Source: a virus (Duplodnaviria > Heunggongvirae > Uroviricota > Caudoviricetes). From it: a stretch of DNA of 48,061 bases. A program made the position numbers and the translations under genes. The DNA is taken from the IMG/VR virus record IMGVR_UViG_3300001199_000002, positions 1 to 48,061 of that record. One strand, 5' to 3'. Below are positions 12,220-37,645 of the stretch, piece by piece. The notes beneath the pieces are model-generated. The model had not been told where the DNA came from. It saw only the letters and a program-made list of their open reading frames with translations, and ran no database searches. Positions within the stretch are counted from its first letter, which is position 1, and the number at the start of each line of letters is the position of its first letter.

Positions 12220-12340
12220 TGGCCAGGAGAGGATTCGAACCTCTATCCGTTACGGTTGGTATCGCACCAACATCATACCCGCTATGGAGTACGCGCAATC
12301 TTTCACGCCTCGTATGTTTTTCCGATTAAACTACCCAGCC
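12220..12340 (-). ncRNA. tRNA-like RNA with greatly expanded anticodon region
   Basis: GGCTGGG/CCTGGCC-A acceptor, TAGTTTAATCGGAAAAAC D arm, AGAGG-TTCGAAT-CCTCT T arm, ~70 nt between D and T arms. Confidence 0.6.
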
Positions 12341-25582: not shown

Positions 25583-28500
25583 TCCTTCTCGCCTGCATCG
25601 ACTTTCTCTACGAATCGAGCAAGGAAAGAATCAGCCAGACCATTGATACTACCATGAGAAAGGTAGCGCGCAAGAACAGCCGTTCGGATCTGAGCGAACA
25701 ACTCGCGCGACATAGAGATGCGAATCTCAACATTGTCGGCAGATTGCTTATTCTTGTCACCCAACATGTTCATCATGTCAGTAAGGTCGTCAAACATCTT
25801 CTTGAAATCGTCGTCCATGTTAGTCCAGATAGATCCCTAGTTGAGTTTCACACACCGTCATCACATAACAGGTCCAACAACAGTTGATCCCTTGGTTACA
25901 GTAGTCGTGATAGTGGCTTTCGCATACAAAGCCTCTAGTCTTCACACTTTCTTTGCACTCTTGACAGTTCGTCTGCTTATCACTAGCAGCCTTGAAGGTA
26001 GCTCGTGAAGCCTCAATCTCGGCACGATCGGCAGCGTCTACAATCTTGTCTAGATGCTTCGCGATGCTCCATTGGTGGATACGAAAAAGCTCTAGCGTCT
26101 CTGGTGTGAACTTATGCATTCGACCATCCTTGTAGACCATACTATGCCTTATCCTTTTCCCATTGTTCGCGCCACTCTTTCTCTTCTGCGAGACACCTAG
26201 CCCTAAACTCTTCCCTACCGAGTTCGACGTAGTTCTTAGTAGTCATACCTGACTCGTGCTCAGCAAGAGGAAAGAATCCAGCCTGGAAGACAGTAACCCA
26301 CACCTTATGGGGTGAGGCTAGCGCGATGATATGACAGGCGTTAGTTGTCTTCTCAACATGAGACTTTGCAACAGTCAATGCTGTGCGATAGTCTACATCT
26401 TCAATGAGGAAACAACCTTTCGACTTGACACTAAACTTGTTCATCTTCGTCTAGTTGCCTTAGTGCAATCAGCATTTTGTGAACTTCACCATTCGGATGG
26501 ATAGACACGCCCTGATCTAGGTGATTCGCAAGCGCCCTAATGATCGGCTTCCAACGATCTATGGTTTCTTTCAAGAAGAGTAATCGTGCTTCTTGGTTAT
26601 ACTTTCTCATTGCAGCAAACCATTCTTCATTGAACTCGGCGATGGTTGTCATCTAGTTGTCTCGCTTCCTGCGTTCCTCTTCAAGAATCTCTTCGATGAT
26701 CTCGTCAGCCAATCGCACCTGTTCTGGTAGATCGCTTTCGATGAACTTGATAGCCTCATCTTCCATCTTACAACGGTGGAGTAGCGTATCCATCGAACCA
26801 CGCACATACCACCAACGGTCTAGACCTTGGTAGTAGCGACAGCCATAGCGATTGCTCTTGAGCGGCTTCATTACCTTATGATACACCACAATTCGCGCTA
26901 GTCAAGCCCTTTCAGCAATTTGTCATCGACAATTACTTTGAGCCAGCCCGTATTAGACGATGGCACCCAATAGAGTAGCTTTTCAGCAGCTTGGAGAATT
27001 TCTTTTGTCGTAGATGCTTTGGATGATACCGTGACCAAGCATAAGTAGAATGCTTCACCAACTGGATGCATACGTACAAGCCAACCACTATGACATTCAA
27101 GTGGCTGAACGAACACTCCTGGTGCCATAATCAATCTTAGAGCCTCTTTTGTAAGCACGTCGTGTATATCGGATGGTCTCGTATTAGAGACTACCTCATC
27201 ACTAAGATTGTACAGCACAATGTAACTAGTCATCTAGTTGTCTTCTAATTAGACACTCTCATCATAGGACAGTTCGTCCCAGTTGTCGTCAGCAAGCTTC
27301 TCGTCGCGATGCTTGTCGCATGTCAGCCGCTCTACCTTCTTACGGTTGTGCCATAGTCGGCTAGTTGCTTCGCAGTCGCAGAAGTCACAGTTCCTGTTTT
27401 GGTGTTTCATCGCCTATCCTTCTCTCGTGACCAGTTCACAAGGTTGAACATGAAGATGGCAGCACAGAAGCAGAGAAGTAACGCCCACCCTCCACCAAGT
27501 TGGTAGGCAGCTACGAGTGCGATGATGAAAACAATCATTGTCTAGTTGCCAATGTAGACATCGATGTAACGAGTGCCAACAGGGAAGTCAATAAGGTCAC
27601 CAGTCGTTGTGCCAAAGACCTCCGTTACCCTAGGATTGCCCATCCGATCTGTTGCGCCAGATGCGCCATGCGTAGCATACATAGGCAGTTCGCCATAGCC
27701 CAGATTGGCCAGTTCTTGCAATCGCTTGATGAAGTCGTTGAGTGTCATGGTTGTAGTGTTTCGTTGTCTAGTTGTCGTAGTGCTGAATAGCACTTTCTCC
27801 AAACAACCTCACCATCACTTCACGCTTCCCAAAGTAGCTCCACCGAACTCCCTTGTAGTCCCAGATAGCGATAGGTTCGCCATCCACGTTGTAGCCCCAA
27901 GAGTGTTCGACCTTGCCCGCATCGTCATCGATATTGGGCTTGCCAAGCACTTCACAGATACGCTGGAAGGTGACGTTCAGGTGGCCTTGCTTGTACGAAC
28001 TGATGTGCAGATTAGGAGTGATTTCCATACACACCAGAATACACCATTCGATACAGGAGTCAAGTCTTTCTCACAAATCTGGTTTAGGTGTATCATCGCG
28101 CACGTATCTTAAGTTCTTTTTAGATCAGTGTCGCGTTATGTTGGATATGACACATTGTCATGCCCGATCGGGAAATCGAACGTAAATACAGCAAAGACAG
28201 GCTGTTACGCTAAGTGTCTGGAACCATATACCATAGAGTATAACACTCATATTTAGTAGTATATGATAAGGGGTTTTGGAACTTAAGTGGGCGGTGGCCA
28301 TTAGTCCCTGGAAAGGCGTCGTTAGGTAACACGCACGCACTTACCTAATCCCTGGGCGGTCGTTTCAAAATATGTTCCAGCACAAGCGCAACAAGGCACA
28401 CAACGAACCAGATGATGACTGGCGGACTAAAGAAGGTTGTGGTCATTCGCCCTCTTGTGATTTGAAGAGGAAGCAGACAACTAGCAACGCAGACATAACG

Positions 28501-29171
28501 AGAAGGGCAGCGAAGAAGCAGCACGGCGCTGGGTACAGCAGAGCTAGCAGAACAACTAGAACAAACAGTAGTGCCTTCATTGTCCCTTCCTCTCACGCAT
28601 CGCCTTGATCCTTGCGCGCAGTTCCTCTATGTGGATGATCTTCTCTTTATGTGCAGCGCGGACACTTAGGTAACGCAGCAGGAACATCAGAGGCAGAAGC
28701 ACAGCAGCGGTGCATGCATATGCTACAGTTCCTTGAAGGGCGCAATACCAAATGGCAACTAGAAGGACCAGATTTGTGAGTAAAAGCTCTGTGCTAAGTT
28801 TCATGTGTTTTTGTCTCGTTTCGGCTTGTTCTGCGCGAATATGTCAGCTTATCCCAGGGTGACGAGCAGTCAAGGCGATTTTCGAGAAAGTGCGCTTTAT
28901 GCATAAACAAGATTTGCAGGACAAAAGTGACGTTTGGGACACAACATACCTTAAACGCTTGAGAGAGTTGCTCGCAGCAACGCTTGCGCGTTCTGCTCGA
29001 AGAAGAACGAGAGGCGAGCGTCACCCCAGACAACTAGGTAAGAACATGGTATAGGTGTTCGTGAATGCTAACGCTTACTGCTAAAGTGTTGCGCGCCTCT
29101 GGTACTAAGAACAGAACTTAGAAAGTACTAGAAAGAGTTGACAAGCGCCCAACGTGTGATATCCTACGGGC

Positions 29172-30743: not shown

Positions 30744-32133
30744 CGCTCTAGTATACCCTACTTCCTTCTAGTTGTCCAGTATTTCGGTCAGAAACCTTGC
30801 AGAAAGATTCTCAAAATAGGACTTGACAAACCTCCGGGGGTGTGATATACTAGCCTATACTTCAGGAGACCCGTATACCCGCGCTGCAAGCGCGAGACCT
30901 CGCGCTGTTCCGTTGTGCAACGCCGAGCGGGCGCGCTGTCTCAGGTTGAGAACACGCAACTCTCAATCAGAGACGCGGGCAAGTCGCAGTAGTTCTTACC
31001 GATTGCCTTCAAAAGTCTCTCGTTGAGACGAATGGCTTCATCGGGGAAAAGCGATGCATGATCGTCGATCGCGTATAGCGCATACAGTTGCCGAATGATT
31101 TCGCGCCAACTCATCGGCGGTATCCTTGGCACTGCGCGCAGTTACAGACGACGGCAATCACTACTGGTTCGTTTGTCATTGGAGTTAGTTGTTGTGTGGT
31201 CCTTCGTGGTGAAGAGCAAGCGAACAACGGTCACCCGTCCATCCGCTTTCGCAACGCTGTACCACGGCACCCCGACGTTCGGTTGTGACTTCGTGGCTTT
31301 TCGCGTTCGGATACCGATTCTGTAGGTATCTCAGTTCCCGCATGATCGGCCAAGCCGTATAGACTGGACCGATGTAGTGGTCATCGACGTAGAGATACAG
31401 ATTGCGCTTGAGTCTCATCGTTTCCTTTTCGTTCTAGTTGCGATGTAGTATCCTACCACAAGAACAACTAGAGTCAAGAGGAATGTCGTATCTTGTCCCA
31501 TAAGGGGACTAGTCTGCGGCATGGCCAGGATTCTCGAATGGGGATTCGTATTCCTGGAACTCAAGCAATGCCATGTTTACGGCATAGCGAGCATCGGAGT
31601 CGGCAATCTCCGGGCATTCATCTAGTAGCAAATACGTCTCGCCGTTTGGAGCCTTCCAGTCTCGAAGTGAGACCTTATAGGATCGATTGAGACCTTGCGG
31701 ATTCGTGACAAGGATTAGAGCGCGGGGAATCCCGAACTCAGCCATTACGATTCGTGCGCTGTAGTTCACTTGTGCCACCTAGGACAAAAGAAAGGACAAC
31801 GCAAGTCAATGCCATAAGCACGACAAGCGGAATCCACAACGGGGAAAGAATCCAGAATCGCACTAGACTTCCTTCTTACTGGCTTCCACACACGCGATGG
31901 CGTGCGCATCGAAGTCGATTGAGGTAGCGAAGAACTTGCCGCATAGGCTGCACTTGCATGATCCACACATGCTAGAAGCATACCACATATTCGCTAGTTG
32001 TCAAGCGACCCATCACAGATTCCCTATATGAGACAGTATTGGCCCGTTGCGCATGCGCGAGGCGTCGCGCTGTCTCAAAATGATACCACCCACCATCCGT
32101 GCGGGGGATGGCGGGCGTCGTCCGGCTTCCGTC

Positions 32134-32988: not shown

Positions 32989-33306
32989 CGTTCTTTTCCT
33001 TTTCGTTTTGGTTGTTGTTTCGGGGAGTCGTTCCCCTCGTTCGCTTGAATCATACCATGCTTTTCGGCAAGGTCAAGGAAAGCGGCAAGAATCTTTTGCA
33101 GGTCTATTTTCAAGAATCTAGCGGTTTTTTACTTGACTACAGATTGCTTGTGTGCTACGCGCGGACGCGCGCAGAAAGAAAGGTGCGAGTCCCACTTTGA
33201 GATTTTACAATTTCGTGGTTGACAAGCTGCGCGATATGTGCTATACTTAGGAGGGAGGACCGTTTTGCATGCGCGAGCCGCTTCGCTGTTTCTCAAAATG
33301 AGAAAA

Positions 33307-33423
33307 TGGTGGAGGCGGTGGGAGTTGAACCCACGTCCAACTAGACAAGTCCCGTTTTGGTACAAAAGCCTTTCGGGATGCGGACTTTCACCGCCGTTCT
33401 AGTTGTCGAAACCCGTCGCCCCC
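33307..33423 (-). ncRNA. Minimal tmRNA-like RNA (tRNA-like domain only, 117 nt)
   Basis: 5' GGGGGCGACGGGTTTCGAC ... GGACGTGGGTTCAACTCCCACCGCCTCCACCA 3'; G3-U70 pair, A73, no D stem. Confidence 0.8.
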
Positions 33424-33804
33424 ATTAGTCCGGCTTATAGACTGGCACAATCCAGGCATCGGTGCCGTTGTTGAACTCTGCGGATTCTTGCGCATCCTCG
33501 CTAGTCTCGAATGGTCCGGTGATAACCAAACCATCGAAGGGGTTGCCGTTCACCACAAGAAAGCCGTTGATTTCGTCGTCCATGGAAGGATTATACACCA
33601 TCCTTATATGGTGTCAAGTCCATTTCGGAAACTACCGCCAGGGCATCCCCGAATGGGATTTCGTATAGGAATGCCAATTTGGCAGCAGCAATCGGCTGGA
33701 CGAAGTTTGTGCTCTGTCTCAGTTCGAGAATGATACGTTCGGCAACACGGTGGATGTCCGCACCTTTGATGATGCGCGCAGCGATTTCTTTGCGGTCCAT
33801 AGCA

Positions 33805-37124: not shown

Positions 37125-37432
37125 GTTTAAGTATACCCTAGTTTTCGTTCGTGGTCAAGTTTAGCGCTATGTTTTCGGTCCCGATATGAGACGCTATATG
37201 GTCGCTCGCTGGTACGGTTTTTGCATGCGCGAGCTGCCGCGCTGTCTCGTTAGGAGACATCCTCCGAGAACTCCAGTTCCACATTGGGAATCTCGATCGG
37301 GGTATTCATCCCGTCCCAGTGAACAGTCACCGTTCCCTTTTCGAGATTCTCGGCGACTACCGTTCCGGTGTTGAACTCGCTCTTTACTCGCTTTTTCATG
37401 GCACCTAAGTATACCCTAGGTTTCGCTAGTTG

Positions 37433-37645
37433 TCAAGCGGGGAGTTCGTCGAAAACGATATCCTGTCCCAGATTGAGATACCCGTGTTTGTTCTGTGCGA
37501 AGTTGTACACGTACAGCCAACGCTGTCCCATCTTGAGAAACGGGGTTTCGTTTCCACCGCAAGCGGGAACCCACCGATCGGCGCAACCCACTCGCGCGAT
37601 TTCGTAATCCAGTCTCGACTTGAGAACTTCGATCGGGGTTTCCAT
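37433..37645 (-). CDS. Hypothetical early protein (WVPACGGNETPF type)
   Basis: Compact ORF with GAGG RBS formed by the upstream palindrome. Confidence 0.6.
   Translation of the reverse strand: METPIEVLKSRLDYEIARVGCADRWVPACGGNETPFLKMGQRWLYVYNFAQNKHGYLNLGQDIVFDELPA

Follow-up and report, generated by a model that had tools for sequence, protein, structure and literature searches.

A 117-nt tmRNA cut down to its tRNA-like domain in the small-gene array of a large uncultured phage

The entry 'Mycobacterium phage DS6A (TLD only)' was listed by Hudson, Lau and Williams in 2014 as a tmRNA consisting of just the tRNA-like domain (TLD), and titration of SmpB was suggested for it (PMC4131195). A tmRNA database paper of 2025 restates this form as Phage__Mycobacterium.9, says that it inhibits endogenous tmRNA in E. 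coli and adds CDS-less plastid forms of approximately 65 bp (PMC11915505). Where PMC4131195 cites Mao et al. 2009, a TLD-like molecule is described as a strong inhibitor of tmRNA, perhaps via SmpB titration. Tagless tmRNAs are also found in jakobid and oomycete mitochondria (PMC3590771, PMC11915505), and where CDS-less tmRNAs occur together with SmpB in mitochondria, a role in coping with incomplete mRNAs is attributed to them (PMC11915505). Furthermore, a TLD fragment in which the 5′ 25 nt and the 3′ 34 nt are joined by a loop suffices for SmpB binding, as summarised in PMC3985003 from Gutmann 2003 and Bessho 2007. The DS6A locus was read directly in the present study, and at 28478-28560 it displays a P2 stem of 6 bp closing 20 nt, with a score of 43.2 bits. 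Both the kind of molecule, a phage TLD-only tmRNA, and the leading hypothesis of SmpB titration are already published. The initial annotation of the locus described below cited tagless mitochondrial forms as precedent and not the phage DS6A form of 2014, and it overstated the novelty of the locus because the mitochondrial forms were the only ones it named.

The window, i.e. the whole stretch of 48,061 nucleotides analysed here, represents the first 48 kb of a viral record of 176,061 bp which has direct terminal repeats and is estimated to be 100% complete. The window harbours, on its minus strand, a mini-tmRNA gene of 117 nt (33307..33423; RNA position p corresponds to window position 33424 - p). 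A tmRNA covariance-model search, suggested as a check in the initial annotation, established that the Rfam tmRNA model RF00023 covers the RNA from end to end (33423..33307, minus strand; model positions 1-374) and scores 72.3 bits (E 2.6e-26), where the gathering score is 47. Both termini are aligned at high posterior probability, while the 304 interior model positions that represent the pseudoknots and the tag frame are replaced by 48 nt, and no other RF00023 match was obtained across the complete 176-kb genome. ARAGORN called no tmRNA, tRNA or tag at the locus in either the window or the whole genome, as is to be expected because this program requires a tag frame and the mini-tmRNA has none. 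The centroid fold consists of an acceptor stem, an unpaired D-loop analogue, a P2 stem, two hairpins and a T arm. The RNA is a tmRNA cut down to its TLD, without a tag frame.

The acceptor stem is formed by GGGGGCG (33417..33423) and CGCCUCC (33311-33317), and all 7 bp are kept in each of the five homologues, as are the G3.U70 pair (33421/33313) and the sequence ACCA, comprising discriminator A and a genome-encoded CCA (33307..33310), so named for the minus strand on which all elements described here lie. As read from these positions, the alanine identity elements (G3.U70, discriminator A and CCA) are intact. The D-loop analogue ACGGGUUUCGA (33406..33416) is unpaired, ends in UUUCGAC, is nearly invariant in the family and aligns at high posterior probability to the tmRNA consensus GAucuGGaUUCGAC; the addition of C33405, with which P2 begins, completes the tmRNA motif GG..UUCGAC. 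This motif, the GGAC junction and the ensuing T arm GGGUUCNANUCCC correspond to the SmpB-binding surface; they align to the consensus at high posterior probability and hardly vary in the family. The T arm, GUGGG-UUCAACU-CCCAC (33318..33334), has 5 bp with 100% of cells paired, and a U:A pair is replaced by C:G in one homologue (L049). The 5′ strand of P2, CAACUAGA (33398..33405), makes 8 bp with UCUAGUUG (33338-33345), again with every cell paired (100%), and its innermost position is occupied by A:U in two of the homologues and by G:C in the other three. P2 joins hairpin 1 and hairpin 2 in a three-way junction which also includes an unpaired linker, CUUG (33346..33349), running from hairpin 2 to the 3′ strand of P2 and identical in all five sequences. 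Hairpin 1, GCGG-UGAAAGU-CCGC (33380..33394), has a stem that covaries from C:G to G:C and a loop, UGARAGU, that is invariant apart from its R position and which may represent a GNRA tetraloop (GAAA or GAGA) closed by U.G. Hairpin 2, UCCCG...CGGGA (33350..33378), has a stem kept in five of the five homologues and extendable by UUUUG/CAAAA, and a loop of 19 nt; in one of the two subtypes of the family, subtype B, the stem is CCGCG/CGCGG with a register shift of 1 nt, and the loop sequence differs between the subtypes.

The interior of the mini-tmRNA folds as two simple hairpins in which none of the pseudoknots PK1-PK4 was found. A pseudoknot between hairpin 1 (GAAAG) and the loop of hairpin 2 (CUUUU) was considered and rejected upon inspection of the alignment, the pairing being lost in the homologue L047 and in subtype B. 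Similarly, no resume codon followed by a tag frame ending in a stop was found, the sole candidate being a speculative frame of 2-6 codons. Since PK1-PK4, resume codon and tag frame are all lacking, the mini-tmRNA cannot perform the mRNA half of trans-translation. These results bear out the structural part of the initial annotation, which had proposed tmRNA-type termini with G3.U70 (now placed on the minus strand and backed by the end-to-end RF00023 match and the fold), an unpaired D loop, a P2-like stem with two small hairpins, GCGG/CCGC and UCCCG/CGGGA (recovered both in the centroid fold and in the consensus that RNAalifold gave for the five homologues), and the absence of an mRNA-like domain.

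The mini-tmRNA shares with the DS6A form that it is encoded by a phage and has a 7-bp acceptor stem with G3.U70, a D-loop analogue, a T arm and a P2 closed by a short insert with neither tag frame nor pseudoknots, and the same role, inhibition of host tmRNA through SmpB titration, can be proposed for both. However, the DS6A form is about 80 nt in length, does not encode its CCA and has the lower score (43.2 as compared to 72.3 bits), whereas the window RNA of 117 nt encodes CCA and carries a 48-nt insert with two hairpins, a three-way junction, an invariant UGARAGU loop and CUUG. The two RNAs exhibit no sequence similarity outside the TLD, and the phage of the window, 176 kb in size and uncultured, is far from the mycobacteriophages. 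With the canonical one-piece tmRNA (RF00023) the window RNA has in common the termini, alanine identity, T arm, D-loop analogue and base of P2, but it is devoid of PK1-PK4, resume codon and tag reading frame. All of the engineered TLD fragment is retained, in nt 1-26 and 79-117, although such fragments are laboratory constructs with a UUCG loop, whereas the window RNA is natural and possesses a larger, conserved closing domain. The jakobid and oomycete mitochondrial tagless tmRNAs and the plastid forms of about 65 bp (PMC3590771, PMC11915505) likewise consist of the tRNA-like part only; in contrast to the viral RNA, which would act on the system of a host, they are vertically inherited and use imported SmpB of the same cell.

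A search with the terminase retrieved two relatives of the phage, a contig of 82 kb (G001) whose terminase is 67% identical and one of 166 kb (G004) whose terminase is 36% identical. G001 contains a mini-tmRNA homologue of 117 nt (68.4 bits), and a motif scan of metagenome contigs yielded three further homologues of 117-118 nt (L047, L048 and L049; 72.6-74.1 bits), so that five sequences, the window included, were available, and these fall into two subtypes. In the alignment of the five, standard pairs fill 92.4% of pair cells, as compared to 39-55% once the partners are shifted against each other by 1-3 columns. Changes of both partners were seen at six pairs, namely 5:68 and 6:67 of the acceptor stem, the innermost pair of P2, one pair in each of the small hairpins and one in the T arm. 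RNAalifold, to which no structure was supplied, returned the same fold from the five homologues, and the subtype-B sequences alone also fold into it. The RNA is conserved while the upstream flank is not (window as compared to L047, L048 and G001). In reference bacterial genomes the family-specific pattern gave no match other than an unrelated one of 64 nt in a Collimonas MAG. The more distant relative, G004 (IMGVR_UViG_3300033074_001674), has no mini form; instead it encodes a full-length tmRNA of 374 nt (37197-37570, corresponding to L041 1501-1874, plus strand; 77.7 bits). This tmRNA has an unusual T loop and was not called by ARAGORN, and by eye a long frame ending in ...GCC GCU GCC UAA (AAA*) can be discerned in it.

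To place the family among other compact tmRNAs, two pattern scans of 2.9 million viral contigs were performed, the matches then being tested for a closed 7-bp acceptor stem and G3.U70. About 29 distinct compact forms of 76-94 nt were obtained from these scans, and there were just four families of at least 110 nt, i.e. L023 (110 nt), the window family (117-118 nt), L006 (125 nt) and L025 (127 nt). Of these, L023 and L025 each form one long extended P2 when folded, and among the pattern-scan forms the three-way junction was found in the 117-118-nt family only. On account of its 117 nt and two hairpins, as compared to the compact forms of 76-94 nt, the window RNA was filed as a long variant. Several matches were discarded as mini forms, these being ordinary full-length tmRNAs (an L005-like group, L003, L014 and L031), a permuted tmRNA (L017) or, for several others, tandem tRNAs. 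Of 32 other viral records bearing a mini-tmRNA, 31 have the compact form as their top-scoring match, at a score above the Rfam cut-off, and in none of the 32 was a full-length tmRNA found alongside the mini form, nor an smpB gene, nor a gene with an RF-1 domain. Judged by this gene content, the mini form is an alternative to the full tmRNA in phages. On a 24.7-kb viral contig of the survey (L033), a match to the Pistol ribozyme (5471-5534, minus strand; 65.5 bits against a cut-off of 34.5) was observed approximately 1.3 kb from an 83-nt mini-tmRNA.

Other identities for the 117-nt RNA were considered and rejected. It is not half of a two-piece (circularly permuted) tmRNA, as its halves lie in normal order within one unit and the genome holds no second RF00023 match, and the permuted tmRNA model RF04321 gave only sub-threshold matches of 14-20 bits over the whole genome. 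Nor is it a tRNA-Ala, being uncalled by ARAGORN and having tmRNA, not tRNA, as the best match within the Rfam clan. The loop of hairpin 1 does not qualify as an anticodon loop, for it has G in place of U33 and its middle triplet varies between AAA and AGA. The smpB gene was not found in the complete 176-kb genome, and any SmpB must consequently be that of the host. The questions raised by the initial annotation of a separate coding piece and of a phage smpB are thereby answered in the negative for the complete genome.

The genome specifies 23 tRNAs as called by ARAGORN, with extra Rfam tRNA matches, and encodes a large terminase, an Rnl1-type RNA ligase and a CCA-adding enzyme. No match to the locus was obtained when 50,697 phage records were searched by blastn, and no cultured phage has a terminase that is more than 24% identical. 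Two of the extra tRNA matches lie on the minus strand of the window and have no ARAGORN call; the first, at 12220-12340 (121 nt, 42.3 bits), suggests an interrupted or intron-bearing tRNA, while the second, at 7586-7657 (72 nt, 34.4 bits), is located beside tRNA-Met and tRNA-Trp. At 3096-3710 (minus strand) a 204-aa homologue of RF1 without domain 1 is encoded, which keeps PET (P-x-T) and GGQ, scores 98 bits for the RF-1 domain and 44 bits for PCRF, and has RF1 as its best PDB matches; it adjoins the gene for the Rnl1-type RNA ligase (1210-2346) and is near tRNAs. A protein of 567 aa with DUF2828 and DUF7788, for which the PHROG label is 'RNA-binding protein', is encoded at 4598-6301 (minus strand). 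The 567-aa protein, the RNA ligase, the RF1-like gene, the tRNAs and the CCA-adding enzyme together suggest an island for RNA repair and quality control.

The mini-tmRNA is situated within a minus-strand array of small genes that extends from about 29.5 to 40.7 kb. In the surrounding 16 kb, 38 sigma70-like sites were counted, many of them TTGACA-17-TATACT, as compared to 12.0 +/- 3.5 in shuffles. The palindrome KTCTCA-N3-TGAGAM occurs in the window in 35 copies, on both strands and nearly all between 29600 and 40750, where 0.76 would be expected. Each cassette of the array was also observed to carry a near-consensus sigma70 promoter. By these sequence features the array looks like an early region read by host polymerase and made up of exchangeable cassettes, of which one holds the mini-tmRNA, and the placement of the RNA in an early region by the initial annotation agrees with its position inside this promoter-dense array. 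Upstream of the RNA, a promoter of the sigma70 type (TTGACA-16-TATAAT, matching the consensus at 12 of 12 positions; 33590..33617, minus strand) most likely drives its predicted transcription. The homologue of this promoter in L047 ends 11 nt before G1 of the RNA, while G001 has a TTGACA-17-TATACT of its own that ends 9 nt before G1, as well as a GC-rich hairpin and T run (terminator) after CCA. Between promoter and RNA in the window lies an acidic ORF of 52 codons (33425..33583, minus strand), the ATG of which sits 7 nt past the -10 hexamer, so placed that its mRNA may be leaderless. Its stop ends 1 nt before G1, so that the mini-tmRNA would be released by 5′ processing, presumably by RNase P. 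The ORF has no PHROG match and was not found at the same site in L047, L048 or G001, where the RNA comes directly after the promoter or an upstream gene, and it is probably a cassette insertion outside the function of the RNA.

A cassette-end palindrome, TTCTCA-AAA-TGAGAA (33290..33304), starts 2 nt after CCA and is conserved behind the RNA in L047, L048 and G001. Two strong plus-strand promoters (TTGACA-17-TATACT with an upstream TG) oppose the direction of the array, at 33219-33306 and 30823-30955, with AGGAG, a GC hairpin and the palindrome downstream of both. The one at 33219 aims into the mini-tmRNA in antisense and could give rise to a small RNA or an antisense transcript; L047, L048 and G001 share its hexamers. 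The plus-strand promoter at 33219-33247 was nevertheless rejected as a dedicated antisense regulator, as the same module is present at 30823 and its 10-codon peptide is not conserved in comparison with L047, and the convergent module looks, from its sequence, like a feature of the cassette array and not of the RNA.

By analogy with the published inhibition data, which pertain to a shorter molecule in E. coli and not to phage infection, we propose that the mini-tmRNA may serve as an early decoy that is charged by host AlaRS and diverts SmpB and stalled ribosomes from host tmRNA, thereby blocking tagging, and we give this proposal about an even chance of being correct. The initial annotation had put forward an SmpB sponge or a tagless rescue RNA, both reasonable as candidate functions. 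In the decoy scheme, host sigma70 RNA polymerase would read the early array, the mini-tmRNA cassette included, and RNase P would most likely cut the mini-tmRNA from the transcript at G1. Charging by host AlaRS would then occur via G3.U70, and host SmpB would bind, such binding being proposed because every nucleotide of the crystallised SmpB-binding TLD fragment is kept. With EF-Tu, the mini-tmRNA would compete against host tmRNA for SmpB and stalled ribosomes, and since it has neither resume codon nor tag frame it would be unable to attach a degradation tag. Host trans-translation would thereby be inhibited during infection, with regard to both tagging and the mRNA decay linked to SmpB-tmRNA. 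The extra conserved hairpins probably make the RNA more stable or provide a contact. A pure SmpB sponge has no obvious need of an invariant G3.U70 and an encoded CCA, a pattern of conservation which hints that charging and ribosome entry matter, and it leaves the conserved 48-nt insert with its UGARAGU loop and CUUG linker unexplained. Furthermore, full-length tag-encoding tmRNAs are present in many large phages (L005, L003 and L031), and the benefit of blocking trans-translation is thus not uniform among phages.

The invariance of the charging elements leads to the main alternative, which we regard as unlikely, if conceivable, i.e. that the charged mini-tmRNA, with host SmpB and EF-Tu, enters stalled ribosomes and accepts the nascent chain without tagging it. 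The resulting peptidyl-Ala-RNA would leave by drop-off and peptidyl-tRNA hydrolase or another route, without a mark for proteolysis, and such rescue would help a phage whose host-shutoff nucleases make many non-stop mRNAs. Charging appears to be selected, since neither the five homologues nor the approximately 29 short forms show any variation in G3.U70, discriminator A or encoded CCA, and the full-length tmRNAs of relatives and other large phages suggest that a capacity for rescue is useful; the role envisaged for mitochondrial CDS-less tmRNAs with SmpB (PMC11915505) is in line with this. However, no release route is evident. No Pth gene was found in the phage genome, and the RF1 homologue at 3096-3710 was rejected as a rescue partner, because the retained PET and GGQ mark it as RF1, with its codon-reading PxT, and not as ArfB; it is absent from G001 and G004. 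A rescue partner supplied by the phage was likewise rejected as a general rule, the RF1 gene being unlinked to the mini form elsewhere, as evident from the 32 other records without an RF-1-domain gene, and there being no Pth and no SmpB. In addition, a similar molecule has been reported to inhibit and not to rescue (PMC4131195, PMC11915505).

RNase R is regulated through tmRNA-SmpB. A second alternative, which we consider rather improbable, is that the RNA acts outside trans-translation by virtue of its tRNA shape, as a decoy or competing substrate for host anti-phage nucleases or RNases whose targets are tRNA or tmRNA, or as a cofactor of a phage protein. The phage invests heavily in tRNA, with at least 23 tRNAs, the Rnl1-type RNA ligase and the CCA-adding enzyme, the conserved insert is a possible platform for protein binding, and there is precedent for phage proteins with t(m)RNA fragments as RNase R-binding cofactors (PMC11662646). 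Against this stands the lack of a consistently linked protein gene, as the upstream neighbour differs by subtype and the 52-codon ORF is found only in the window, and it is the tmRNA-specific features of the TLD, not generic tRNA ones, that are most strictly conserved.

It is very improbable that the RNA is instead the smallest complete tmRNA, with a very short tag frame in the insert that ends at UAG in the 3′ strand of P2. According to such a reading, translation would resume, after alanine transfer, at the invariant CUU within the CUUG linker or else some codons further upstream and would add a hydrophobic end of 2-6 residues (A-L-V or A-L-A), which would be a short tag of its own or allow clean release. 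The candidate frame is ...AAA ACG GGA CUU GUC UAG (...LV*) in the window and CAA AAA ACG CGG CUU GCC UAG (...LA*) in subtype B; frame and UAG occur in five of the five homologues, the A-rich stretch differs at two codons (AAA to AAG and CAA to CAG), both synonymous in frame, and tags of two residues have been reported in some bacteria (PMC11915505). However, there is no pseudoknot and no ARAGORN resume context, the UAG is accounted for by the CUAG palindrome of P2, the four variable sites are too few to show codon-like evolution, and no comparable frame is present in the other long forms L006, L023 and L025. By structural reasoning, moreover, the stop lies 2 nt from the TLD core, and entry into the mRNA channel would unfold the TLD. 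Equally improbable is a functionless RNA, either a decaying full-length phage tmRNA, for which internal deletion would be a plausible origin given the 374-nt tmRNA of the distant relative G004, or an attachment-site fragment of host ssrA, since both ends are intact and in normal order where an attP would carry the 3′ part only, since the length of 117-118 nt, the fold and the compensatory changes are kept in five sequences despite terminases only 67% identical and upstream flanks that cannot be aligned, and since dedicated promoters and a terminator are present. On these comparative grounds the 117-nt RNA is a real, structurally constrained gene and not a remnant.

To our knowledge, the literature mentions phage TLD-only tmRNA mimics only briefly and from a single phage, and no such RNA has been studied in the course of an infection. 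The present analysis adds a family of five sequences with covariation, promoters of their own and one terminator, residing in large uncultured phages, it places such an RNA among what look like early genes read by host polymerase, and it defines a rarer long form with a conserved extra three-way junction. Trans-translation is an antibiotic target, and if the mini-tmRNA does act as a decoy for host SmpB and stalled ribosomes, RNAs of this kind would represent simple, portable natural inhibitors of the process, and the extra domain of the long form could guide the design of more stable or more competitive ones. If tag-free rescue holds true instead, the family would represent a new viral way of recycling ribosomes.
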